A DNA stretch of 64,000 nucleotides from Butyricimonas sp. (GTDB lineage: Bacteria > Bacteroidota > Bacteroidia > Bacteroidales > Marinifilaceae). Positions 5,367-51,525 of this stretch are shown here, in pieces; the stretch's first letter is position 1, and every line of letters begins with the position of its first letter. The stretch covers positions 46,911 to 110,910 of the forward strand of contig JAHZBN010000007.1 of NCBI GenBank assembly GCA_019423345.1. The letters run 5' to 3'. A model generated the notes under the pieces. It was not told the origin of the DNA, made no database searches, and worked only from the letters and a program-made list of their open reading frames with translations. The position numbers and the translations under genes were made by a program.

Positions 5367-7292
5367 ATGATGATGAAAAAATATTTATTATCTATACTTT
5401 GTGGCCTTTTTCTGTTGCCTGGGTGTAATTATCTCGATATGGTTCCGGAGAAAGACATTGAAACGATAGAATCGGTTTTTGAGCAACGAACGAAAGTGGA
5501 GAAATGGTGGTTGGGACTCTATTCGGATTTGATGACTGTAGTAACGAGTGCTAATAATCTCGCTTTCATGGGAGCCGATGAGTTTACGCCTAGTCCTGTT
5601 TTATACACTGCAAACTATGCAATGCCCGGTTTTTTAGTGGCAAACGGTCAGCAGATGTCACAAGAGCCTTACGGGAATATATGGCTGAGTATGTATCGAC
5701 TTATCCGAAGGGCTAATGTTTTTCTTGAGAATATCGACAACACGTACAATATGACGGAAGAGACTAAAGCCTGGTGGAAAGCAGACGTGAAGGCACTGAA
5801 GGCGTATATCTACTTTGAATTGCTTCGTACTTATGGCCCTATTTGCTTGATTCCGCAAAATATGCCTGTGGATTTGGAGGTGGAAGATTACCAATTGCCG
5901 AGGCAACCGGTGGATACCTGTTTCAAAGAGATTGTCCGGTTGCTAGACGAGGCCGAACCTGATATTCCGAGACACTCCCAACGGGATGCATTCTATGGGT
6001 TCTCTTTTACGAAAGAAGCTGTTGCTGCTTTGAGAGCCAAGGCGTTAGTTTATGCTGCTTCTCCACTTTTCAACGGGAATATATTTTATGCCAATTTTAA
6101 GAACAAGAACGGGGAATTGCTTTTTAATACTAAATATGACCGGGAAAAATGGAGGTTGGCCGCGGAAGCTGCCGACAAGGCGGCTGAAATTTGTGCGGAG
6201 GGAGACCGGGAGTTTCCGGCGAAAGGAAGCGGTAAGAAAACCACTCTTTTGAACCACATGGATGATATCGAGCAAAGCACGTACTCTATGTTCAATAATA
6301 AGGAATATCTTTTGGAGTGGAAAGGTGGAATGCCTAGAATATATACATATATTCTCCCGCGTTTGGAGGGTGATGACAATCATTTCGAATCTCTTGTATA
6401 TGGTTGTCTCTCTCCGTCCATGAAAATGGTGGAGATGTATTACACGGAAAACGGTTTACCTATAACCGCAGATGCTTACTGGAATTATGGTAACCGATAT
6501 AAATTAGGGTCAGAGAGTGCTCAGTCTTATGAGGGAGTGGTTCCATTGAATACCGATGTAATAAGACTTCATTTGCGTCGGGAACCCCGTTTTTATGCCT
6601 CCATTGCGGGAGACCGGATGTATTGGCAGCGAGGACTAAACACGCAGAACCGAGATAACAATTTGCTCGTGCAGGCACACAAGGGTGAAATACCTTGGGG
6701 GACCCAAAAAGACGTTATTGTCAGCAATGATTACCAGAACATCAGTGGTTACTGGTTGAAAAAATGGATTTATTCGTGGATTCCTACTAAAATGTATTAT
6801 CAAGGTATAACGAATGAGACTATGGCCGTTCTTCGCTTGTCAGAAGTGTATTTGATGCAAGCGGAAGCTTGGAACGAATACTTAGAGTCTCCGGATGAAG
6901 AACACGTGTACAAACCGTTGGATAAAGTACGTGTTCGGGCTGGAATTCTTCCGGTACAGGAAGCTTGGAAGAACTATTCACTGAATCCCGGAAAAGTGGA
7001 TACGAAAGAGGGGATGCGGGACATCATACGCCAAGAGTATAACATCGAGTTCGCTTTCGAAGGGCATCGCTACTGGAATATTCGTCGTTGGATGACCGCT
7101 CAGCAGGAGATGAACGGGAAAGCATACGGTTGGAATATTCTCGGAACAACGGCCAGTACATTCTATAATAACGAGAATGGACCGGTTGAGGTGGGACGTA
7201 GTTATAAATTTATTGCTCCCCGAGATTATTTTACACCTTTCAAAGCCGAGGAGATTTTGATCTCTGGAATGAAACAAAATCCGGGATGGTAA
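5367..7292 (+). CDS. SusD/RagB-family nutrient-binding outer membrane lipoprotein
   Basis: 641 aa. Lipobox (LLPGC), immediately follows SusC, SusD-type C-terminus (EFAFEGHRYWNIRRW … MKQNPGW). Confidence 0.85.
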   Translation: MMMKKYLLSILCGLFLLPGCNYLDMVPEKDIETIESVFEQRTKVEKWWLGLYSDLMTVVTSANNLAFMGADEFTPSPVLYTANYAMPGFLVANGQQMSQEPYGNIWLSMYRLIRRANVFLENIDNTYNMTEETKAWWKADVKALKAYIYFELLRTYGPICLIPQNMPVDLEVEDYQLPRQPVDTCFKEIVRLLDEAEPDIPRHSQRDAFYGFSFTKEAVAALRAKALVYAASPLFNGNIFYANFKNKNGELLFNTKYDREKWRLAAEAADKAAEICAEGDREFPAKGSGKKTTLLNHMDDIEQSTYSMFNNKEYLLEWKGGMPRIYTYILPRLEGDDNHFESLVYGCLSPSMKMVEMYYTENGLPITADAYWNYGNRYKLGSESAQSYEGVVPLNTDVIRLHLRREPRFYASIAGDRMYWQRGLNTQNRDNNLLVQAHKGEIPWGTQKDVIVSNDYQNISGYWLKKWIYSWIPTKMYYQGITNETMAVLRLSEVYLMQAEAWNEYLESPDEEHVYKPLDKVRVRAGILPVQEAWKNYSLNPGKVDTKEGMRDIIRQEYNIEFAFEGHRYWNIRRWMTAQQEMNGKAYGWNILGTTASTFYNNENGPVEVGRSYKFIAPRDYFTPFKAEEILISGMKQNPGW

Positions 7293-27803: not shown

Positions 27804-29135
27804 ATGATGAAAAATACAATTTTGATATTATTGTTGATATTCGGATTGTTTGCCTGTGAGGACAACGATTCCTACTTTGATGCTTCGATCCCCCAGGAAA
27901 ATGTTCGGTTCAAGGCCATTCCGGGAGGGGCTGTTATGCATTACACCTTACCTGAAAATACGGATATTTTTGCCGTTAAGGCAGAGTATGAAGATTACAA
28001 GGGAAAGAAAATGATCAAGATTGCCTCTTATGCTTATGATTCACTCGTGCTTGACGGGTTTAATGAAGCTCGAAATAACGTGCCGGTGCGGGTGTCATTG
28101 TTGAATCAAAGTAACGAGGCATCGAAAGCGATGGAGTTTACTTTCAATACACAGGATTCTGGTCCGGTGGCTTTCTTTAACGATATAGAGGTGTTACCTT
28201 ATTGGGATGGATTTCAGGTAAAATATAAGGTCCCCGGAGCTGCTACCGGACTTTGTAACGTGTTTTTTATCGGAACGAATCCCATGACTCGGGAGCTGGA
28301 TACTCTTTTATTGGAAACTTTCGCTATTGAGGCCGGGGAGAATGTGAAATATTTTTCTTTAGCTCAAAAAAGGGACGTGAATACTGTTGTCGTGAAAACG
28401 GAAGATTTTAGGGGGAATGTGGCCATGCAGAAAGTATACGAGGGAGTTGCTTCATATAACGTGGGGAAATTGGATCCATCGAATTTCGAGTGGCTGGATC
28501 CGTTCTCTTTGTCCGTGGAGAACGATAATCAAGGATTTATGGTCGGTTGGAAGTATCTTTTTGATGGTGATGTAAAAGGTTCTCGGAAATTGGCTTTTCA
28601 AGAATCTTGGGGTACAGCAATGCCTCCGGCGAATATGTATTCTTTTGTAACTGTTCCCTACGCAGTGAATAAGCCGGATGCCCCGAAATATTTTATTTTG
28701 GATATCAAGGAACCCAAGCAAGTTTCTAGTATTAGGATGTATGGAATGTTAAATCTGAATAGCCTGACAAAACCCTCTGTTTTCGTAACGTGTTACGGTA
28801 CGATGTTACCTAATGAGGTGACAATATATGCATCTAATAATAAAGATGATAATACTTCTTGGGTCAAGGTGGGTAATTTTTATCAGTCGTTGACAGCGGC
28901 GGTTCCATGGATACAACGTGCCGGTGATGTTGATGGTTCCACGAAAATAAAGACGACAAGTGAACTTGAAGCCGTGGAACCATGCTACCTTACGGTTAAT
29001 TTTTCTGTTGATAATCCTCCTTACAGGTATTTCAAGGTTGAATTTAACAGTGTTTTTAAAGAGATACCGAATCAATATTATAAAAATACCACGGAACGGG
29101 TGACTTTGCATGAGGTTGAAGTATACGGGAAATAA
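27804..29135 (+). CDS. DUF4959/DUF5000-type surface lipoprotein (tentative), paralogue of 7360
   Basis: 443 aa. Lipobox LFAC. GGAVMHYTLPENTDIFAVKAEY…DGF. C-terminal VTLHEVEVYGK. Confidence 0.55.
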   Translation: MMKNTILILLLIFGLFACEDNDSYFDASIPQENVRFKAIPGGAVMHYTLPENTDIFAVKAEYEDYKGKKMIKIASYAYDSLVLDGFNEARNNVPVRVSLLNQSNEASKAMEFTFNTQDSGPVAFFNDIEVLPYWDGFQVKYKVPGAATGLCNVFFIGTNPMTRELDTLLLETFAIEAGENVKYFSLAQKRDVNTVVVKTEDFRGNVAMQKVYEGVASYNVGKLDPSNFEWLDPFSLSVENDNQGFMVGWKYLFDGDVKGSRKLAFQESWGTAMPPANMYSFVTVPYAVNKPDAPKYFILDIKEPKQVSSIRMYGMLNLNSLTKPSVFVTCYGTMLPNEVTIYASNNKDDNTSWVKVGNFYQSLTAAVPWIQRAGDVDGSTKIKTTSELEAVEPCYLTVNFSVDNPPYRYFKVEFNSVFKEIPNQYYKNTTERVTLHEVEVYGK

Positions 29136-29149
29136 TAAATAGACGAATT

Positions 29150-30673
29150 ATGAAGAGAATATATATAGTCATTGTTTTGACGGCAATATTTGCCGGAATC
29201 TTTGCCGGGTGTGAGGACCAGGAAGATACGTGGGATGATTATGCGGGTAATGGTCGGATTCGTTACACGGGAAAATGTACGGATGTTTCTTTGGAATTGG
29301 GATGGGAGAGTGTGGTTGTTTCTTGGAAAAATACGTTGGATCCGAATCGGGAAAATATCTTGATAGAGTGGGTTGGTGGAGAGCAGACCGGAGATTCGCT
29401 TTTGACGAAGGATATGGAAAGTTGCACGATTAAAAATTTAGGTAACGTGACATACACGTTTCGTGTGTATGCTATGGATAAAGAAGGGAGGCGTTCTTTG
29501 GGTGCCGAGGCTTATGGGCGGCCTTTTTCCATGGCACATGAAGCGTTGAATGGGTTTACCCCGGTTGTAACGAAATGTTTTCCTTTGGGAGGGGATAAAC
29601 TGGTTCTCTATTTTGATCGCTGGCAAAATACTTTAGCGGAAGCAAGTCTTCGGTATTACAAAAAATCGAATCCGAACGAACTGATTACTTTGGAATTAAC
29701 AGATACGGATAGTATCCTGAAACAAAGGTATTACGTGGTGGAGGATATTGATGTAAACAAGGATGTAGTAGTGGAACGGAAAGGTCAATTACAAGAACTT
29801 CCCGGTGTGGATATTGTTTTTACCCCCCTGCCGTTGGATGTACATCAGCGAATATTTAATAGTGATTTTGTTCGGGAGATTCAAACTCATTACTTTATTG
29901 AAGAACTGGATGAGAATTTTATTAACACGGTAGAGGTGTTAGAGTTTGATTATGATTTGTCTACATTGGAAGACTTGTTGTATTTCCCGAATTTGAAAAA
30001 AGTGATATTAGGAAAGAATCGATACTTGTATGAGGCATATAAAGATGCCGTTAAGCAGAGTGTGTTAGCGGACACGGCGGCTAGTCGATTCGCCTTAGAG
30101 GTACTCCATGAATTGCAAGGAGTGGAAGTGGAGAGATATAACAAGCATTATTTCCCGAATCCATTGTCAGTGCTGAAAGAACAAGGACATTCTAAGGTCC
30201 CTACTACATTAAATTATCTGACGGCCACGGGAATAACGGTTTCGCCTTCCGATCAAACCGGGTATAATGCTCATCCTGAATTTTTATTAGATAATAATCA
30301 AGCGACGATATGGAATCCTCAGCAGATAAATACTTTCCGACAACATGAATTGCTTATCGATTTAGGTAAAGTGGAGTCCGTGTCCGGCTTTAAAGTGGTG
30401 CAAGATGCCACGAACCCGATTAGTAGTCCATGGGACACGAAACATAATTTCCGTCCGAGCTTGCTAAAAGTGTTAGTGTCAAAAGATCTAGCATCTTGGG
30501 AAGGGGCTACTTTTGATGAGGATAATGAGATCGGGAATACGGCAGGAGAGATCACGTTACTTCGTATGAAACTGCCTAAAGAAATCAGGTATGTCAAAAT
30601 AACCGTGAGTGATCAGGCTTATTACGCGAATTTTGGTGTGATCTTGGCTGATTTTGTCGCCTTTAGTGAATGA
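29150..30673 (+). CDS. DUF4998-like surface lipoprotein with discoidin-like C-terminus (tentative), paralogue of 8719
   Basis: 507 aa. Lipobox FAGC. YAGNGRIRYTGKCTDVSLELGWESVVVSW. Confidence 0.5.
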   Translation: MKRIYIVIVLTAIFAGIFAGCEDQEDTWDDYAGNGRIRYTGKCTDVSLELGWESVVVSWKNTLDPNRENILIEWVGGEQTGDSLLTKDMESCTIKNLGNVTYTFRVYAMDKEGRRSLGAEAYGRPFSMAHEALNGFTPVVTKCFPLGGDKLVLYFDRWQNTLAEASLRYYKKSNPNELITLELTDTDSILKQRYYVVEDIDVNKDVVVERKGQLQELPGVDIVFTPLPLDVHQRIFNSDFVREIQTHYFIEELDENFINTVEVLEFDYDLSTLEDLLYFPNLKKVILGKNRYLYEAYKDAVKQSVLADTAASRFALEVLHELQGVEVERYNKHYFPNPLSVLKEQGHSKVPTTLNYLTATGITVSPSDQTGYNAHPEFLLDNNQATIWNPQQINTFRQHELLIDLGKVESVSGFKVVQDATNPISSPWDTKHNFRPSLLKVLVSKDLASWEGATFDEDNEIGNTAGEITLLRMKLPKEIRYVKITVSDQAYYANFGVILADFVAFSE

Positions 30674-43424: not shown

Positions 43425-44015
43425 ATGATGCTGGGTAAAGAAGAGGATAGAAAACCTATCGGGCTTTTTTTCGGATCGTTTAACCCGATTCATAATGGGC
43501 ACGTGGGGATTGCTCGCTACTTGTTGGAAAAAAAGCTATGTGCGGAAGTGTGGTTTGTGGTCAGTCCCTGTAATCCGTTTAAAGTGGATCGTTTTCTTTT
43601 GCCGGAAACGGATCGTTTTGCGATCGTGAGTGCCGCTATCCGGGGAATTCCCGGGATGAAAGCTTGTGATGTGGAGTTTTCTATGTCTAAACCTTCTTAC
43701 ACGGTCGATACCTTGCGAGTCCTGTTTGATCGGTATCCCGGTCGGCAGTTTGCTTTGATCATCGGGGAAGATAACGTACCGGATTTCCCGAAATGGAAGG
43801 ATTATCATTGGATCGAGGCACATTGTTCCATCTTTGTTTATCCCCGTCCGGGAATGGTGACTTCTGAAGAATCTCCGAGTATGACGTTCATCGATGCGCC
43901 TTTGTTTCCCTTGTCTGCTACCGAGATCCGGGAAATGATTCGAAAAGGAAATGATATTTCAAGTTTGGTTCCAAATGAGGCTTTATCGTTGATCTGGAAG
44001 TTGTATTCAAAATAA
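43425..44015 (+). CDS. nadD: nicotinate-nucleotide adenylyltransferase
   Basis: 196 aa. GLFFGSFNPIHNGHVGIA (HxGH motif), …SATEIRE. Confidence 0.9.
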   Translation: MMLGKEEDRKPIGLFFGSFNPIHNGHVGIARYLLEKKLCAEVWFVVSPCNPFKVDRFLLPETDRFAIVSAAIRGIPGMKACDVEFSMSKPSYTVDTLRVLFDRYPGRQFALIIGEDNVPDFPKWKDYHWIEAHCSIFVYPRPGMVTSEESPSMTFIDAPLFPLSATEIREMIRKGNDISSLVPNEALSLIWKLYSK

Positions 44016-44149
44016 GTGAGTTTGTTATGCGATGTAAAACAAAATTGGCAGAGATATTCCACATCTCATAACGTGCTCACTTATTTCACAGAACAATGCT
44101 TGTTGGAAAATTTGGATAGAAGAAGATCATGTTACCATGATGAACATCT

Positions 44150-44345
44150 TGCCAGCTTCACTTCCCGAAAGCTACATAAACAGTTACGTCTTGGCAGGTT
44201 TTCTGACTTGTTTCCTTTTCGTCGCCTTCCCATCCATGTACAGACAGTGGCAGTAGAGACTAAAGTTTCGAAACTTACAGCTGCGGGTACAGTTCCCGAC
44301 TCTCACGGGATTCCCTCGTAATGTCACGAAGAACATTACCTCTCC
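44150..44345 (-). promoter_or_regulatory. cobalamin (B12) riboswitch, with no recognisable downstream CDS
   Basis: The minus strand reads GAGGGAAUCCCGUGAGAGUCGGGAACUGUACCCGCAGCUGUAAG … CUGCCACUG … GAUGGGAAGGCGAC … AAGUCAGAAAACCUGCCAAG (B12 box at 44193-44208). Confidence 0.85.
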
Positions 44346-44355
44346 AATACGTTTA

Positions 44356-44363
44356 CAAACATA
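44356..44363 (-). promoter_or_regulatory. -7 promoter box driving the riboswitch
   Basis: The minus strand reads tatgtttg, about 10-15 nt upstream of the first aptamer helix. Confidence 0.45.
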
Positions 44364-44366
44364 GGG

Positions 44367-44405
44367 AAAATAATTGAAAATTGGAAATTGAAGATTGAAA
44401 ATTAT
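44367..44405 (-). repeat. ttttcaa-type repeat tract (minus-strand orientation)
   Basis: The plus strand reads aaaataattgaaaattggaaattgaagattgaaaatt. Lies directly upstream of the riboswitch -7 box. Confidence 0.6.
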
Positions 44406-44554: not shown

Positions 44555-44562
44555 TACTTTTG
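44555..44562 (+). promoter_or_regulatory. -7 promoter box for the YitT-family gene
   Basis: tacttttg, 51 nt upstream of the ATG at 44613. Confidence 0.4.
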
Positions 44563-44612: not shown

Positions 44613-45524
44613 ATGGGATTTGTAACTAAGGAGAAATTGTTCTCCAAGGATTTCTTTATCACCTACGGATGGCTGTTGGGTGGTTGTTTTGTGTTTGCAT
44701 TAGGGGCTGTATTATTTGCCGAGCCTTACGGTTTTGCTCCTGGGGGAACATATGGTCTGTCTATGGTATTTCATCATTTGTGGGGGTGGGAGACTGAAAT
44801 TGCGGCCCTTTGTATGGATGTGCCTTTGTTGTTGTTGGGCATCTATTTCTTGGGAGGAATGTTTGGTGTGAAAACCATTATCTGTACGTTTGCTATTCCG
44901 GCGTTCATGCGCTTGATCCACTACGTTTACGGTTATGATGCTTTGTTGGAGCCGGGAATTACAGACCGAACGATGTTGAATGAGCAGTTGCTGTCGGCTA
45001 TTTTCGGGGGTATTGTTTATGGTATCGGTATCGGTATGATTTTCAAAGCACGGGCGACTTCCGGGGGATCGGATATTATTTCCATGATTTTGAACAAGTA
45101 CACTCATATTTCTTTAGGAACATTGGTAATTATCGTGGATTGCACGATTACTTTGTCAACGGTTGTAGCCTTCGGAGACTGGCGTTTGCCCATGTATTCT
45201 TGGATTATCGTGTTCATTGAAGGTAAGGTGATCGACTTGATTGTTGAAGGTGCTTCTGTTCACAAGACGTTGATGATCGTGACCAAGGAGATGGATACCG
45301 TGAAAAATATAATTTTGAACGATATTAACCGCGGAGCTACAATTTTACCAGCTATCGGGGCTTATAAAGGAGAGTCGCGTGAGATGATCTACACGATATT
45401 AACCCGTCGCGAGATGATGGTTTTACGTCACAAGATTCGTGAAATCGACCCAGAGGCTTTTATAAATGTTATTGATTCCAGAGAAATATTAGGGAAAGGA
45501 TTTAAGTCACTGGATGCAGAATAA
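44613..45524 (+). CDS. YitT-family membrane protein (DUF2179 C-terminus)
   Basis: 303 aa. Multi-TM N-terminus with GGTYGLSMV, C-terminal …ILTRREMMVLRHKIREIDPEAFINV. Confidence 0.8.
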   Translation: MGFVTKEKLFSKDFFITYGWLLGGCFVFALGAVLFAEPYGFAPGGTYGLSMVFHHLWGWETEIAALCMDVPLLLLGIYFLGGMFGVKTIICTFAIPAFMRLIHYVYGYDALLEPGITDRTMLNEQLLSAIFGGIVYGIGIGMIFKARATSGGSDIISMILNKYTHISLGTLVIIVDCTITLSTVVAFGDWRLPMYSWIIVFIEGKVIDLIVEGASVHKTLMIVTKEMDTVKNIILNDINRGATILPAIGAYKGESREMIYTILTRREMMVLRHKIREIDPEAFINVIDSREILGKGFKSLDAE

Positions 45525-45565: not shown

Positions 45566-45592
45566 AAAAAAGAGCCGTATGGCTCTTTTTTT
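45566..45592 (-). terminator. rho-independent terminator for the RND operon
   Basis: aaaaaagagcc/gtat/ggctcttttttt, abutting the stop of the 45591..45884 gene. Confidence 0.7.
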
Positions 45593-45884
45593 AATACATA
45601 TCCGTAATATCCCAGACAAATGCTCGGATACCGTTCTCTTTATTCACCTCGTCAAGATTCTTGACATATTTCAAGATCAGAGGAACCATTTCATCTTCCA
45701 CGATCGTCATGGTGGCGGAATTCATCTCCGGCCAAGTATGAGTTCCCATTCTGGGTTCTCCATCCACGGTTCCCGCTCCGTTGACCAGAGGCCATTGTGT
45801 GAATCCTCGTATTTGTAATTGATCAAGGATAAAAGCAACCCGTTCTGTTAGGGCTTGGTTATATGATATAAATACTGCTTTCAT
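45591..45884 (-). CDS. small P-II-like transporter-associated protein (resembles the PG0541 family as I recall it)
   Basis: 97 aa. Last gene of the RND operon. No TM segments. Confidence 0.5.
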   Translation of the reverse strand: MKAVFISYNQALTERVAFILDQLQIRGFTQWPLVNGAGTVDGEPRMGTHTWPEMNSATMTIVEDEMVPLILKYVKNLDEVNKENGIRAFVWDITDMY

Positions 45885-45949: not shown

Positions 45950-48900
45950 TTATTTCTTTTTCGGAAGATCTCTTTCCGGGTTAAAATCAGCCATGAACTT
46001 GAATTGTTTGCTGAGGATCTTTTTCTTGTCACGGCTACCACTCTTGTCCATGGCAGCGTAAACAGCCGGAACAATAATCATCGTGATAATCGTGGAGAAG
46101 ACCATACCACCGATTACGGCGATACCCATCGGTCTCCAAGTTTCAGAACCCTCACCAGCACTAATTGCCATCGGCACCATACCTAAGATGGTGGTTAACG
46201 AGGTCATCAATACCGGACGCAAACGAGAACGACAAGCCATCGCAATCGCGTCGTACAAGCGGATACCCCGTTCACGCATCAGGTTGATGAAATCGATCAG
46301 CACAATACCGTTCTTCGTAACGATACCAACCAGCATGACGGCTCCTAAAGCAGCAACGATACTTAATGTCGTGTTCGTGAGTAATAATGCCAAAATTACA
46401 CCGGTGAATGCAAACGGGATTGCCAACATAATGATGAACGGCATCTTGAATGATTCGAACTGGGCTGCCATCACGATGTATACTAACATCAAGGACAAAA
46501 GTAATAACATGGTCAATGAACCGAAAGATTCCTGTTGATCTTCGAAACTACCACCAATGTACATCGTCACGTCTTGTGGAATATCTTCCATGTTATCGAT
46601 AAGAGCCTGGGCAGCACCTGCGATCTCTCCCAATGCGACACCTGCTGCGGGAGTAATCGAAACCTTTAGGATACGTTGTTTACTCTTACGTTCAATATTT
46701 GGCGGGGAGAAATATTCTTTGATTTCTCCAAGTTCTTTCAGACGTACTTTTTCTCCTTTACCATCGGTGATTAGAATATTTTCTACGTCAGTAATAGAGG
46801 AGCGATATTTCTCATCAAGACGAACGATAATATCATATTCTTCACCATCTTCTTTGAATTTACTATTACGATACCCGTAAATACGATTACGTAAATAACT
46901 TCCTACATCTGATGTACTTAGTCCGTGGCGAGCTAATTTATCTTGATCGAGAACAATCTGTAATTCAGACTTATCTTCATCCCGACTGATCTTGATGTCT
47001 TCTGCTCCCGGAATCTTTCTAGCTTGTTCTGCAATCGCATGAGCTAGGTTCGTGGTTGTATTGAAATCATGCCCCATGATCTCGATGTCAACATTGTTAC
47101 CACTCATTGAACCTCCACTTGATGTGGTTACCGTGTACTGGAGAATATCAGGAAAACGTTTTAAAATTCCGCGAACTTGGTCGGCTATCTCAAAAACACT
47201 GCGGCTACGTTCTTTTAAGTCGAGAGTTCTCAAACGCATATTCAAGATATTATTACCAGTACTGTTCATCATAGAAGCGAAAGAAGCTTCCTCTTCGCTA
47301 CCATATGACAAGTTGATCAATGTGATTTCCGGGATTTCAGCACGAATGATGGAGTCAATGTCTAAAGCTACCTTTTTCGTAACCTCAACTCGTTGTCCTG
47401 ATTGCATCTTGGCATATACACTCATGTAGTTCTGGTCATTCTGAGGCATGAAGTCCGTTTTGATCAACTTTGCAAGGGTTAATGATGCAAAGAACAAAGC
47501 GAACATAGAAACAATTGTAACCGTTTTGTGACGAAGAACCCAACGAATGAGTTTTTCATATGCGGAATCAAGTTTATCCAGCATTCTGGACACAAAACGA
47601 TAGAAACTGAATTTACCTGTATCTGTGTTATCTTGGATTTTCATCAACTGGGATGAAAGCATTGGTGTTAACGAGATAGCGGTTATCGTAGAGGTACATA
47701 CCGTGATACAAACGATCCAACCTAATTGCTTGAACAGAATACCGGTCATTCCGGTTACTAATGTTAATGGGAAGAACACGGCAACTGTTACAAGGGTTGT
47801 TACAATTACAGATAACCAAACTTCGTTTGTACCATATTTGGCGGCTTCCCGTGGGCGGCTTCCTCGGTCAATATGTTTTGTGATATTTTCAAGTACCACA
47901 ATAGCATCATCCACTACCATACCGATCGCAATGGAGAGAGAGGATAATGAAATCACGTTGAGTGATTCTCCCGTTGCGAACAGGTAGATAAAGGCAACAA
48001 TCAAAGAGATCGGAATGGTTAAGGCAATAATGAATGTTGCTCTCCATCGTCCTAGGAATAGGAATACGACTAAGACCACGAAGATCAAAGCGTACATTAA
48101 GGATTCCTGTAGGTTATTGATAGATTTCACAATAAAATCGGAGTTATCCGAAATGATTTGAAATTTGATATCCGAAGGCAATTCTTTCATTGCTTTCTCG
48201 ATCTCTTTTTTAGCTTGATTAGCCACGGCCACAGCATTGGCATCAGTTTGTTTGGTTACCATCAAAACACCACCATTTCCTCTATTAATGGTTTGCTCCA
48301 GTGTGATATCTTTCAAGGTATCACGGACAGTTGCAACATCATGTAAATAGATCGTCTTGTTGTTTTGTGTTCCCAACACGAGGTTTTTGATTTGATCACT
48401 TTCATCAAATTCACCTTCAACACGTAGCGTGTAGTCCATGTCTCCCATCTTCACGTTACCGGAAGAGATATCCTGATTTTCGGTCAAAATTTTATTCCCG
48501 ATTTGTTCCAATGTTAAGTTGTAAGCATCCAGTTTATTCGGATCAAGGTCTACATACACCACGCGTACAGGAGAACCGGCAATGTTCACGGATGCAACCC
48601 CATCTACCCGGTTCAAACGAGTGATTAATTTATCGTCTAGGATCTTGTCAATACCAGGATAGGATTCTTTAGCTGTTACAGCATAAATAAGGATAGGCAT
48701 CATGGAGGTATTGAAACGCATGATGGTCGGACGGTCAATATCGTCCGGAAGATTATTCATCGCTTTATCCACGGCATCCCGTACGTCATTTGAAGCTTCG
48801 TCCAAATTTACTTCCCATTCGAACTCTAGTGAAATTACCGCCAAATTATCATAAGACGTGGAGGTCATTTCTTTTAAGTCGTCTACCGAGTTTAATTGAT

Positions 48901-49105
48901 CCTCTAGGATCTTTGCTACGTTCTCTTCAATATCGGCAGCGTTGGCTCCAGGATAGGTCGCCATGACCGTAATGTAAGGTGGGTCCATTTTTGGATACTG
49001 GTCCACTGGCAATTGTATATAGGAGGCAACACCCAATACCATGATGGCAAGGAAAACCATTAAGGTTGAAATGGGTTTGTTGACCGCTGTATTATATATA
49101 CTCAT
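45950..49105 (-). CDS. RND efflux transporter permease (AcrB/HAE1-like)
   Basis: 1051 aa, 12-TM/two-loop RND architecture, typical N-terminus MSIYNTAVNKPISTLMVFLAIMVLG. Confidence 0.95.
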   Translation of the reverse strand: MSIYNTAVNKPISTLMVFLAIMVLGVASYIQLPVDQYPKMDPPYITVMATYPGANAADIEENVAKILEDQLNSVDDLKEMTSTSYDNLAVISLEFEWEVNLDEASNDVRDAVDKAMNNLPDDIDRPTIMRFNTSMMPILIYAVTAKESYPGIDKILDDKLITRLNRVDGVASVNIAGSPVRVVYVDLDPNKLDAYNLTLEQIGNKILTENQDISSGNVKMGDMDYTLRVEGEFDESDQIKNLVLGTQNNKTIYLHDVATVRDTLKDITLEQTINRGNGGVLMVTKQTDANAVAVANQAKKEIEKAMKELPSDIKFQIISDNSDFIVKSINNLQESLMYALIFVVLVVFLFLGRWRATFIIALTIPISLIVAFIYLFATGESLNVISLSSLSIAIGMVVDDAIVVLENITKHIDRGSRPREAAKYGTNEVWLSVIVTTLVTVAVFFPLTLVTGMTGILFKQLGWIVCITVCTSTITAISLTPMLSSQLMKIQDNTDTGKFSFYRFVSRMLDKLDSAYEKLIRWVLRHKTVTIVSMFALFFASLTLAKLIKTDFMPQNDQNYMSVYAKMQSGQRVEVTKKVALDIDSIIRAEIPEITLINLSYGSEEEASFASMMNSTGNNILNMRLRTLDLKERSRSVFEIADQVRGILKRFPDILQYTVTTSSGGSMSGNNVDIEIMGHDFNTTTNLAHAIAEQARKIPGAEDIKISRDEDKSELQIVLDQDKLARHGLSTSDVGSYLRNRIYGYRNSKFKEDGEEYDIIVRLDEKYRSSITDVENILITDGKGEKVRLKELGEIKEYFSPPNIERKSKQRILKVSITPAAGVALGEIAGAAQALIDNMEDIPQDVTMYIGGSFEDQQESFGSLTMLLLLSLMLVYIVMAAQFESFKMPFIIMLAIPFAFTGVILALLLTNTTLSIVAALGAVMLVGIVTKNGIVLIDFINLMRERGIRLYDAIAMACRSRLRPVLMTSLTTILGMVPMAISAGEGSETWRPMGIAVIGGMVFSTIITMIIVPAVYAAMDKSGSRDKKKILSKQFKFMADFNPERDLPKKK

Positions 49106-49165
49106 ATTTTAAGTTTTAAATTTTGAATTTTAGATTTCAGGCGTATCAATCCGTGAATTAAATGT

Positions 49166-50203
49166 TTACTTGTTAATCGAAAGTGGTGAGCCATCAACCA
49201 AACGTCCTTGTCCGACAACAATTAGTTCGTCACCCTCATGAATTTCGTTACTGATTAATTCAACCTTATCATCAAAACGTTTACCGAGTTTTACTCCAAC
49301 GCGTTTCGCCTTACCATTTTTATTCAAGAATACATAACGATCGTTAGAACCTTGTAATTTCAATACGGCAATAGCCGGAGCAACTACGGTTTCGGTATTA
49401 CCGATGAAGAAATTGATTGTACCGTACATACCCGGTCTTAAAGCTTCGTTTTTGTTTGGAATCTTGACTTCAACGGTAAAGGTTCTAGATGCCGGATCTA
49501 TACTCGGATAGACGATACTTACTTTTCCTTCGAACACTTGGTCTGGATAAATGTTACTTTTTAATTCAACTTTTGTTCCGGGTTTCACCGTTAAGTAATA
49601 TTGCTCGGATAAATTTACATAAGCTTTTACCGGATCTATTTTTTCAATGGCAATAATAGAGGGTTTGGTTGCTCCACCGAAAGAAGTTCCCGTGTAGAGT
49701 TCTTTATCTTCAAAATATTTTCCGGTAACAACTCCATCAAAAGGAGCAAGCATTTTTGTGTTCTCTTTCAAGAACTCCACGTTTGCCTTGGCCACTTCAT
49801 ATTGTGTTACAGCTGCGTCGTAAGCTTGTTTAGAAATACTTCCCGTTTTATTTAATTGAATGGCGCGATTATATTCTGTTTCCAAGTTTTTTAGTTGAAC
49901 TTCAGCTTGTACGAGTTGAGTTTTATCCATTTCTACGAGTACTTGCCCTTTTTTGATCTGATCTCCAACTTCCACGTGTATTTTTTCAATTCTTCCTGTG
50001 GCAGCAGGAGCGTAAAAGACTTGTTTATCAGCATTTAGGTTTGCAGCATACTCCAAAGTTCTGGCAATATCCGTTTTCTCTAGTTTTTGTACTTTAACGG
50101 GAATTGCTTCCACGACATCACCCTCTGTCGTCTTATCTTTTTTGCCTGAGCAACTGGCAAGGATAGCTATCGCTATAATCGATAAAATGAAATTCTTTAC
50201 CAT
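49166..50203 (-). CDS. RND efflux periplasmic adaptor (MFP) lipoprotein
   Basis: 345 aa. Lipobox LASC. Coiled-coil plus barrel pattern. Confidence 0.9.
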   Translation of the reverse strand: MVKNFILSIIAIAILASCSGKKDKTTEGDVVEAIPVKVQKLEKTDIARTLEYAANLNADKQVFYAPAATGRIEKIHVEVGDQIKKGQVLVEMDKTQLVQAEVQLKNLETEYNRAIQLNKTGSISKQAYDAAVTQYEVAKANVEFLKENTKMLAPFDGVVTGKYFEDKELYTGTSFGGATKPSIIAIEKIDPVKAYVNLSEQYYLTVKPGTKVELKSNIYPDQVFEGKVSIVYPSIDPASRTFTVEVKIPNKNEALRPGMYGTINFFIGNTETVVAPAIAVLKLQGSNDRYVFLNKNGKAKRVGVKLGKRFDDKVELISNEIHEGDELIVVGQGRLVDGSPLSINK

Positions 50204-50238
50204 TGTATTTCTTTTTTTGTTTTATTATTCAAGTTGTT

Positions 50239-51525
50239 TTATCGAGGAAGTTGATTATACAGTTTTTCCAAACTTACTTGTGCTTGTAGCAAGCTTAGAA
50301 TTGCTTCCGTGTAATTTGTTTCTGCTTGCAGGTAGTTATTATTTGCTTGTGTCAAATCCAAACTGGAAACAGCTCCCAGCTCGTATTTTCTCTGGTAATT
50401 CTTTAATACCCGCGTGGCAACATCGATATTCTCTTTTTGCAGGTTGTAATTTTCCATGGCGTTTTTCAAGTTGAATTTCAACTGTTCGTCCTGCACGTTC
50501 AACTGGTCTTGCAACAAACTTTTCTGTATATAAGATTGTTCCAATGTGATTTTGGCTTGTTTAACCTTGGAGTCCCGTTGCAAACCGGAGAAAATTGGAA
50601 TGTTCATCGTGAGGCCGGCCGTGTGTTTCGGGCTCATATCCAATTCTGGTTTCAAAATCTTGTAATTGAAGTTGTAATTACCGGAGATCGTGGGAGCATA
50701 ACTCCATTTTTCCAATCCCAACATCTTTTTATTCAACTCGGTTTGCGTGGTAATCAATTGGTAGCTCACGTTGTTATTGATGTCAAATTTTTCAACATAC
50801 AAGCGAGAGGATTTATCGTTTTCCAGGAACATATCCAAGGCATCCGTGAGTTTGATCGGGGTTCCTGCTTCCAATCCCAGTTGGAGACGCAATAAGTTAT
50901 AATTTACGGCAACCGTTCTTTCCATAGATAGTAAGCTGTTTTTCAGTTGTCCCACGTTAATGCGGATTTGGTCCACGTCCGTCTCTTCAACTGTTCCGGC
51001 CTTGTACATGTTATCGGTGTGCTTGTAGATTTTATTCATATTCTCTAGGTTCTGACGCAGAATGTCGAGCATTCTCTCGGAGACCAACACCGTGTAGTAT
51101 GAATTATAAATATTCTCAATAATGTCCAGTTCCGTGGATTCAACTTCTTGCTCGGTCAAACGTACAGCGATTTTACTGGTTTGTAAGCCAAGGATCCATT
51201 GTCCGCTGAACAATAATTGTTGCAAACCTACCGTAAGGTTAGACTGGTCTTTCATTTTTATCGCTTGATTGCCGAAATTCATCTTGTAATTGAAATTCGT
51301 GGAATACGTTACAGTTCCATTAACTTGTGGCAACCCTTGCGACACGGATTCCCGTACCTTCTGGCGATACAAATCAATATTCATCTGCGAAGATTGCAGT
51401 TCCTTGTTGTGCTTGATGGCAAACTCCACTGCTTGTTGCAGCGATATCGTTTGCGGCGCTTCCTGTGCGCAAAGCATCCATGGCACGAAAAACATCAGGA
51501 GGAAAAGAGTCATTCCTTGTTTCAT
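50239..51525 (-). CDS. TolC-family outer membrane efflux protein
   Basis: 428 aa. Signal peptide. Duplicated OEP repeats (…LSLQQAVEFAIKHNKELQ…). Confidence 0.9.
   Translation of the reverse strand: MKQGMTLFLLMFFVPWMLCAQEAPQTISLQQAVEFAIKHNKELQSSQMNIDLYRQKVRESVSQGLPQVNGTVTYSTNFNYKMNFGNQAIKMKDQSNLTVGLQQLLFSGQWILGLQTSKIAVRLTEQEVESTELDIIENIYNSYYTVLVSERMLDILRQNLENMNKIYKHTDNMYKAGTVEETDVDQIRINVGQLKNSLLSMERTVAVNYNLLRLQLGLEAGTPIKLTDALDMFLENDKSSRLYVEKFDINNNVSYQLITTQTELNKKMLGLEKWSYAPTISGNYNFNYKILKPELDMSPKHTAGLTMNIPIFSGLQRDSKVKQAKITLEQSYIQKSLLQDQLNVQDEQLKFNLKNAMENYNLQKENIDVATRVLKNYQRKYELGAVSSLDLTQANNNYLQAETNYTEAILSLLQAQVSLEKLYNQLPR

Follow-up and report, generated by a model that had tools for sequence, protein, structure and literature searches.

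A cobalamin riboswitch without a downstream gene leads a predicted non-coding RNA conserved in Butyricimonas

The Bacteroidota dominate the human gut and compete fiercely for corrinoids. To our knowledge they lack Hfq, very few of their small RNAs (sRNAs) have been characterized, and riboswitch-led RNAs that act beyond their own operon are known from Listeria, Enterococcus and a Desulfovibrio only, with no example from Bacteroidota. Here, a 64,000-nucleotide stretch of a Butyricimonas sp. contig (JAHZBN010000007.1) was analyzed, which carries on its minus strand a cobalamin riboswitch that has its own promoter box and is followed by no B12-related gene. This whole stretch is referred to as the window, and positions are counted from its first letter.

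The closest described systems are EutX of Enterococcus faecalis and Rli55 of Listeria monocytogenes. In both, a cobalamin riboswitch with its own promoter likewise leads a non-coding transcript without a cis-regulated open reading frame (ORF), and, as would be expected for the Butyricimonas RNA, B12 status sets the form of the RNA and hence the availability of an effector domain. However, EutX and Rli55 belong to Firmicutes and to the eut locus and sequester EutV with ANTAR-type dual hairpins, whereas the RNA described here comes from Bacteroidota and has an unrelated tail consisting of a hairpin (H2), an invariant motif and a long hairpin (H3). ANTAR-type dual hexaloop hairpins could not be identified in this tail, nor eut or pdu genes among the scanned ORFs of the window, and because such dual hairpins are missing the RNA is not considered a homolog of EutX/Rli55. 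In addition, EutX and Rli55 are truncated by B12, whereas the logic in Butyricimonas may be the reverse, with the long or exposed form needing B12.

AspocR of Listeria is also an orphan cobalamin riboswitch pointing at a convergent gene. It overlaps pocR, the gene of a B12-pathway regulator, as an antisense RNA, whereas the last hairpin of the Butyricimonas RNA stops at the stop codon of a neighbor that varies. The S-adenosylmethionine (SAM) riboswitches SreA and SreB of Listeria and the SAM-I riboswitch/sRNA of Desulfovibrio share the idea of a riboswitch RNA that acts in trans, but they are terminated leaders of real operons, whereas the Butyricimonas RNA is operon-less and has a dedicated, conserved 3′ domain. 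In the repressing metE riboswitch of P. megaterium and the activating cobT riboswitch of A. halodurans a kissing loop between L5 (xCCCG) and L13 stabilizes the hairpin P13, as is predicted here, and in cobT, as in the folds modeled here, P13 cannot coexist with a larger hairpin further downstream that is followed by a U-rich stretch (PMC10327014). In both of these riboswitches the gated element is a terminator that precedes a gene, whereas in Butyricimonas the competing helix would use a motif 60 nt away and no gene follows. In the searchable literature no description of the element, of any Butyricimonas riboswitch RNA or of a comparable Bacteroidota element was found. A Bacteroidota riboswitch-controlled non-coding RNA, one of the explanations offered in an earlier note on this DNA, is the best reading of a promoter box, an aptamer and the lack of a conserved coding frame, and the RNA is put forward as the first Bacteroidota candidate among riboswitch-led non-coding RNAs such as EutX/Rli55. 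The features of the RNA are as follows.

44363..44356, minus strand: −7 promoter box TATGTTTG (TAnnTTTG, Bacteroidota type), read from the sequence
44358..44176, minus strand: cobalamin riboswitch aptamer (RF00174, full model), with the peripheral P6-P11 domain and the B12 box
44287..44284, minus strand: CCCG of aptamer loop L5 (ACCCG in full; consensus UCCCG)
44173..44154, minus strand: hairpin P13, AGCUU-UCGGGAAGUG-AAGCU, with loop L13, compared in 15 distinct tails
44147..44145, minus strand: invariant AUG, 9 nt after P13, opening a 6-codon ORF (44147..44127) that reads MFIMVT and then a stop codon
44141..44126, minus strand: hairpin H2, AUCAUG-GUAA-CAUGAU, with a pyrimidine-rich stretch 3′ of it
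44110..44087, minus strand: invariant 24-nt element, UUUUCCAACAAGC-AU-UGUUCUGUG, identical in all copies
44087..44009, minus strand: long, irregular hairpin H3 of 79 nt, with the base GAAAUAA...UUAUUUU
44055..44045, minus strand: apical loop of H3, AUCUCUGCCAA, 11 nt, invariant

The aptamer lies in a gap of 597 nt that is flanked by two plus-strand genes, nadD and a YitT/DUF2179 gene. It matched model positions 1-189 of 189 of RF00174 with 91.9 bits (E = 1.7e-21), far above the gathering score of 31.5 bits, and was the only match to an Rfam family in the window. Its motifs GGGAAUCCCGUG, CCCGCAGCUGUAAG, GCCACUG and GGGAAGGC and the B12 box AAGUCAGAAAACCUGCC are all present, and AAGUCAGAAAACCUGCC, GCCACUG and GGGAAGGC are unchanged in every lineage compared. 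The covariance-model scan proposed in the earlier note thus agrees with its description of a textbook B12 aptamer on the minus strand. The TAnnTTTG box that it had placed at 44356-44363 could also be found there and is kept across relatives, as TATGTTTG, TACGTTTG or TATCTTTG in the four genome loci L001-L004. From the position of this −7 box, transcription is predicted to start at ∼44350. An exact TTTG at the expected −33 distance (sigma-ABfr promoter criterion) was not found for the riboswitch promoter. Upstream of the box, at 44371-44401 in minus-strand reading, four tandem TTT(T/C)CAAT-like repeats (ttttcaatcttcaatttccaattttcaatta) were observed, which are kept in the B. virosa and B. synergistica lineages, are absent from L004 and could be a protein-binding site or an UP-like element.

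The orphan state of the riboswitch, with its own conserved promoter box, is confirmed: no B12-related gene was identified downstream, nor among 28 ORFs of the window, located between 21 and 62 kb, that were scanned against Pfam. Before the predicted terminator the riboswitch strand contains no conserved ORF, and the next genes are convergent. In the tail itself, the AUG at 44147..44145 is unchanged in 18 of 18 distinct tails. The ORF that it opens varies from 5 to 23 codons by lineage, it passes through the invariant motif in one frame in L002 and in another in L008, and no conserved peptide starting at this AUG could be found among the 18 tails. Since neither length nor frame of the ORF is kept, a conserved small tail protein was rejected and the tail is considered an RNA and not a small-protein gene. 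The 74-amino-acid frame at 44062..43838, which the earlier note had listed as the only ORF, does exist, but was rejected as a gene: it has no Pfam match, its start falls within a structured hairpin, and the DNA that it occupies lacks conservation, differing in L004 and L008. The transcript is predicted to be non-coding and not to be an mRNA leader.

With the invariant tail motif as query, 37 loci were returned from metagenomes. Five environmental loci (L013, L026, L037, L042, and L043) were rejected as chance matches, because they share one identical ∼490-nt coding stretch, unrelated to the riboswitch, in which the 22-nt tail motif occurs, and gave no Rfam match. The remaining 32 are genuine human-gut loci of the Butyricimonas type and amount, together with the four genome loci and the window, to 37 copies; a 38th (L054) was reached via the YitT gene. 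Aptamer and P13 signatures are present in 37 of the 37 copies, as is the H3 loop where the contig extends far enough, and the unit is intact in contigs of up to hundreds of kb. The aptamer has the same position and orientation in B. virosa, B. synergistica and two uncultured Butyricimonas, with scores of 90-96 bits. Orthologous aptamers in this range were found in eight other loci, among them L001-L004, L008, L022, and L054, with identities between lineages of 80-98%. The second list gives the genes on both sides of the RNA.

43425-44015, plus strand: nadD (CTP_transf_like), convergent with the RNA, stop codon at 44013-44015, preceded by gmk and yicC
44555-44562, plus strand: box of the YitT gene, TACTTTTG (TAnnTTTG type), ∼190 nt from the riboswitch box
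44613-45524, plus strand: YitT/DUF2179 membrane protein gene (Pfam YitT_membrane and DUF2179), divergent from the RNA

The two neighbors are not equally constant. The YitT gene is divergent in every sufficiently long locus, ∼500 nt upstream of the tail motif and ∼250 nt from the promoter box. nadD, which in the window is 97% identical to that of a B. virosa metagenome-assembled genome and marks the window as B. virosa-like, is the convergent neighbor in most loci. However, in L004 a TonB_C gene converges on the RNA and a radical-SAM gene lies between this gene and nadD, and in L008/L014 the convergent neighbor is another gene. Because nadD is exchanged in these loci and the RNA is kept, the conserved unit goes with the YitT flank rather than with nadD. 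It consists of the promoter, the aptamer and a tail of ∼170 nt, and nadD lies outside it. Two further observations concern this boundary and its surroundings. Of the TonB_C gene, which is intact in L004 (7840-7909), L054 (2374-2440, minus strand) retains a short 3′-terminal remnant directly behind H3; this is a footprint of gene gain and loss at the downstream boundary of the RNA. In the window and L001-L044, the amino acid identity of NadD (61-98%) spans lower values than that of YitT (85-100%), Gmk (77-98%) and YicC (81-100%), so that nadD changes much faster than its three neighbors.

The RNA itself has diverged far less than its surroundings. The promoter and aptamer of the window are 93% identical to those of B. 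synergistica (L003) and 80% to those of L004, and the tail is 84 and 60% identical, respectively. Conservation is lowest in the spacer separating the divergent promoters, with 70 and 46% identity. Four-fold sites of YitT, gmk, nadD and yicC are near saturation, with ∼45% identity to B. synergistica and 21-43% to L004.

The structure of the tail was tested for covariation as an explicit structure on an alignment of the 15 distinct tails. None of 500 shuffles reached the observed covariation score, and 94.8% of the cells of the whole structure were paired, vs. 37-45% when it was slid by 1-3 columns. Folding of the tail region was also stronger than that of shuffled sequence (z = −4.0). Compensatory changes were found in 3 of the 6 pairs of H2, whose loop varies from 4 to 6 nt (100% of cells paired), and in 10 of the 29 pairs of H3 (93% of cells paired). 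P13, with a loop of 10 nt, is unchanged in sequence in all 15 tails (98.6% of cells paired). CGGG of its loop L13 is complementary to CCCG of L5 over four contiguous pairs; both loops are invariant, so that the evidence for their pairing is complementarity without covariation. The blocks that never change are P13/L13, the AUG 9 nt 3′ of P13, the 24-nt element and the H3 loop. The 24-nt element occurs once in the window (0.01 occurrences expected by chance). The earlier note had seen only short hairpins behind the aptamer. H2 indeed proved to be real, whereas P13/L13, the 24-nt element and the 79-nt H3 had been missed. As the tail is conserved beyond four-fold sites and carries compensatory base changes, it is concluded that it is under selection. 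A second copy of the tail could not be found with an nhmmer profile in 533 kb of related DNA, where only orthologs and a self-hit of the palindromic H3 were returned. A relaxed Rfam scan (E = 10) identified no known RNA family for the tail, with far sub-threshold matches of H3 to microRNA hairpins.

H3 is flanked by an A-tract and a U-tract (GAAAUAAGUGAGC...GCUCACUUAUUUU in the window; ...CUUAACUUUUUU in L004). Its 3′ arm carries the reverse complement of the nadD stop codon and overlaps about the last 7 nt of nadD, and the hairpin is retained with the RNA where the downstream gene is exchanged. It is predicted to be a probable intrinsic, bidirectional terminator of the RNA. With this stem and these tracts, an RNA starting at ∼44350 should end near 44005-44009, at the nadD stop codon, which would give a minus-strand RNA of ∼345 nt, from ∼44350 to ∼44005.

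The invariant sequences of the tail allow a second fold. The 5′ arm of P13 and L13 (44172..44161; GCUU..GGAAG) can pair with the invariant UUUCC..AAGC ∼60 nt downstream, which results in a long hairpin that carries H2 at its tip and is followed by the U-rich, invariant AUUGUUCUGUG. This alternative hairpin is the minimum-free-energy fold in 15 of 15 lineages, with −17.7 to −22.8 kcal/mol compared to −8.2 to −9.5 kcal/mol for P13 and H2, which it exceeds in stability by 4-13 kcal/mol. In dissected switches, ligand binding stabilizes P13 via the kissing loop between L5 (consensus UCCCG) and L13, a competing helix must exceed the stability of P13 when the kissing loop is absent, and in the activating corrinoid switch P13 shares bases with the terminator (PMC10327014). 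The higher stability of the alternative hairpin thus matches the relation required in these switches. A paralogous Butyricimonas riboswitch in L045 (ribo C), upstream of a TonB-dependent receptor gene, carries GCUUU-CGGGAAA-AAAGC directly after the aptamer and likewise has complementary L5 and L13 loops, and since the same hairpin is found there, P13/L13 is regarded as a normal platform element of this clade.

Combining these properties, a two-state, B12-gated platform is the best reading of the modeled folds. With bound corrinoid, the kissing loop of CCCG in L5 with CGGG in L13 would lock P13 and leave the 24-nt element free. Without corrinoid, the 5′ arm of P13 and L13 would pair with UUUUCCAACAAGC, and the long hairpin would sequester the 24-nt element. 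B12 status would in this way decide on the exposure of the invariant element, and it may likewise determine if transcription ends behind the alternative hairpin or proceeds to the H3 domain. In such a scheme the RNA would signal the B12 state in trans to a partner, which could be an RNA or a protein. Two elements are candidates for a ligand-gated terminator, H2 followed by a CU-rich tract and the alternative hairpin followed by AUUGUUCUGUG; neither was returned by a simple terminator scan. Two other pairings were rejected. For H2 there is no covarying antiterminator, as H2 changes between lineages and the sequence upstream of it does not, and a pairing of the H3 loop with the P1 5′ strand or the GGCAAGAUG region, seen by eye, involves a partner that varies while the loop does not and is lost in L004/L054.

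The likely source of the RNA was found in Odoribacter. In Odoribacter sp. (L055) a riboswitch leads BtuF-like and DUF4465 genes, and divergently from it a TPR gene, YitT and BtuC-like and BtuD-like genes follow one another, with PG0541 and then AcrB beyond in the opposite orientation. The window has the riboswitch with the tail in place of the genes that it leads in L055, then the divergent YitT gene and beyond it PG0541 and AcrB in the opposite orientation. The PG0541-family proteins of the window and L055 are 80% identical and YitT is ∼87% identical to that of Odoribacter, whereas the BtuF/DUF4465 and BtuC/D genes of the L055 site are missing at the Butyricimonas site. Because the orphan shares this syntenic slot with the BtuF leader, it is probably a former transporter leader. 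Judged from gene order, it probably derives from a leader that once belonged to a BtuF-type corrinoid-transport operon, whose genes were lost in Butyricimonas long ago. The synteny check suggested in the earlier note points to a lost gene. The origin part of its idea of a relic of a btuB-type gene is probably correct, except that the gene was of the BtuF type and that the L055 synteny points to an ancient and not a recent loss. The arrangement that would have spoken for an assembly artifact, with the aptamer fused to a transporter gene and an assembly gap at this site, was seen in no relative examined. Apart from the shared slot, which in both cases is divergent from the YitT genes and has PG0541 and AcrB on their far side, the two leaders are unlike each other, since the 233-nt leader of L055 has classical terminator hairpins in front of the BtuF-like and DUF4465 genes.

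Taken together, there is about an even chance that the element is a stand-alone, riboswitch-led non-coding RNA that acts in trans under the control of B12. The more specific proposal, that a former BtuF-operon leader was exapted as a B12-status sRNA in which corrinoid exposes or allows an effector domain, the first in Bacteroidota, is tentative. With similar reserve, the 24-nt element and the loop of H3, both invariant, are named as possible effector-domain candidates of such an sRNA. Several points weigh against this reading. The orthology to the Odoribacter BtuF leader is deduced from synteny. The orphan aptamer is 63-64% identical to the Odoribacter leader and 62-65% to ribo C; as the Odoribacter leader is no closer than ribo C, aptamer identity is uninformative on the origin and orthology on the basis of aptamer sequence was rejected. 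No similarity could be found between the 233-nt Odoribacter leader and the tail. The bases of P13 and of the alternative helix are all invariant and lie outside the reach of covariation. When the invariant elements were compared by RNAduplex with translation-initiation regions (those of 48 window genes, of the local genes with YitT and nadD among them, and of 18 genes from two B12 loci), nothing above background was observed, in less than 100 kb of relevant genome searched. A single hit of −20.6 kcal/mol, on a TP_methylase gene in L047, was rejected as it is not conserved in L049. Finally, the invariant AUG and the constant YitT neighbor leave room for cis-acting or translational explanations.

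The translational explanation assumes that the riboswitch controls translation of the mini-ORF and that the act of translating sets the stability of the RNA, the access of Rho or the folding of the tail. The invariant AUG always lies 9 nt after P13, has an A at −2 or −3, and P13/L13 cover the loading region for a ribosome that binds without a Shine-Dalgarno sequence. An interplay between a B12 riboswitch and an upstream ORF (uORF) has also been documented for the B12 switches of M. tuberculosis (PMC11260477). However, among ORFs of 5-23 codons the stop lies in the H2 loop, the 3′ arm of H2 or the base of H3, depending on the lineage. The second codon encodes F, S or P, the frame through the motif varies and no cistron follows. 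The AUG is moreover part of a predicted helix (pair 35:66, with one compensatory change), which could explain its invariance. The explanation is unlikely, and the regulated micro-ORF considered in the earlier note is weakened accordingly.

The cis-acting explanation, in which the RNA or its transcription modulates the divergent YitT gene in response to B12, either by coupling of the promoters or via the YitT mRNA, is improbable to a like degree. sRNA genes often adjoin their targets, YitT is the sole constant neighbor across loci, and in Odoribacter it is embedded in corrinoid-type transport clusters. However, transcription is directed away from YitT, a separate TAnnTTTG box precedes this gene, the stretch between the promoters is where conservation is weakest, and the adjacency may be merely inherited. 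The predicted pairing between the tail and the initiation region of YitT (−11.1 kcal/mol) was not stronger than the background mean of −12.0 kcal/mol. Concerning the YitT protein itself, in three Odoribacter loci (L055:1-6700, L052:3501-6321, L050:1-4412) the YitT/DUF2179 gene lies amid corrinoid-type transport genes, either with BtuC/BtuD-like genes downstream and the riboswitch, BtuF-like and DUF4465 genes upstream, or with CobN, ExbB and DUF2149. These neighborhoods hint at a link of the protein to corrinoid or metal-chelate transport; in the literature no link between YitT/DUF2179 and corrinoids was found. In the window, YitT is adjoined by an accessory gene of the PG0541 family (45591-45884), which accompanies an RND efflux operon encoding AcrB, HlyD_D23 and OEP (45950-51525).

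The earlier note had proposed that the transcript is aimed antisense into the 3′ end of nadD, whose end it had correctly placed at 44015. A B12-controlled antisense RNA or transcriptional interference at this 3′ end would link the use of nicotinate mononucleotide (NaMN) to B12, for which a metabolic rationale is imaginable, as NaMN is the substrate of CobT in lower-ligand activation. In the window and most loci the RNA is convergent with nadD and H3 overlaps about its last 7 nt, and the U-tract after H3 in the window is short (UUAUUUU), which makes some read-through conceivable. However, the covariation-supported H3 and its tracts, which end at 44009, should stop transcription at the nadD stop codon, and in L004 and L008/L014 the RNA is conserved with other genes between it and nadD. 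Because of this probable terminator hairpin and the variable downstream gene the antisense reading was rejected as very unlikely.

That the element is a functionless relic, a leader decaying since the B12 transport genes were lost, would agree with the lack of a gene after the riboswitch, with the BtuF-like and DUF4465 genes behind its L055 counterpart and with the BtuC/D-like genes that follow YitT there and not in the window. It is nevertheless highly improbable. The aptamer scores 90-96 bits in all lineages and the promoter box is retained, the tail is conserved far above synonymous sites and the neighboring spacer, at a divergence at which neutral DNA would not align, and pairing in H2 and H3 is maintained via 13 pairs with compensatory changes. 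Scarcely credible, lastly, is a corrinoid buffer or sponge, since the copy number of a single RNA is unlikely to buffer B12, or a mere structured insulator or bidirectional terminator between convergent or divergent units, with an aptamer retained solely as a portion of a stable RNA, for which the A-tract/U-tract layout of H3 and its position against the stop codon of any converging gene would speak, but which needs no promoter, no 183-nt aptamer of more than 90 bits, no invariant, single-stranded 24-nt element and no invariant 11-nt loop.

A predicted sRNA led by a genus-wide B12 aptamer that was retained under strong selection after a probable gene loss would offer a handle on the exaptation of leaders to independent RNAs, on kissing-loop gating of outputs other than genes and on B12-dependent post-transcriptional control in gut Bacteroidota, and could serve as a natural B12 reporter scaffold for Bacteroidota. 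If its role is only local or structural, it would mainly serve as a warning that an orphan riboswitch should not be taken for an antisense regulator of whichever gene follows it.

Some further observations were made on related riboswitches and on the window. Two hybrid aptamers were identified in low-coverage metagenome contigs, L019:8050-8244 (plus strand; 112.7 bits; contig coverage 2.7x) and L034:1079-1273 (plus strand; 107.2 bits). Their 5′ third and the DNA upstream of it correspond to ribo C from the TonB-receptor/CbiK locus (98.5% identical to L045) and their 3′ part to the orphan with tail and nadD, with the join in a 22-nt core common to both paralogs (L019:8127-8148). Along 1107 nt the right half of L034 shares 100% identity with L030, a normal contig linked to YitT. 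The hybrids are either small-k-mer assembly chimeras or products of recombination between paralogous riboswitches.

Butyricimonas also carries a divergent pair of cobalamin riboswitches ∼130 nt apart (L047:5407-5607, minus strand, and 5737-5944, plus strand), one of which leads an operon of a TonB-dependent receptor (TBDR), CbiK, PepSY_TM and cbi genes and the other a second TonB-dependent receptor. A third riboswitch (L047:908-1108, minus strand) lies 4.5 kb off before another receptor, and the same layout was found in L045, L046, L048, and L049. Elsewhere in the window (27804-30673), DUF4959 and DUF4998 proteins are encoded at the apparent end of a SusC/SusD-like cluster, as judged by ORF sizes alone. 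The leader of ribo C (L045:40-75, minus strand) contains a 7-codon uORF, AUG UUG CCC AAA AGA CUA UGU UAA, the end of which overlaps the start codon of the receptor gene (AUGUUAA).

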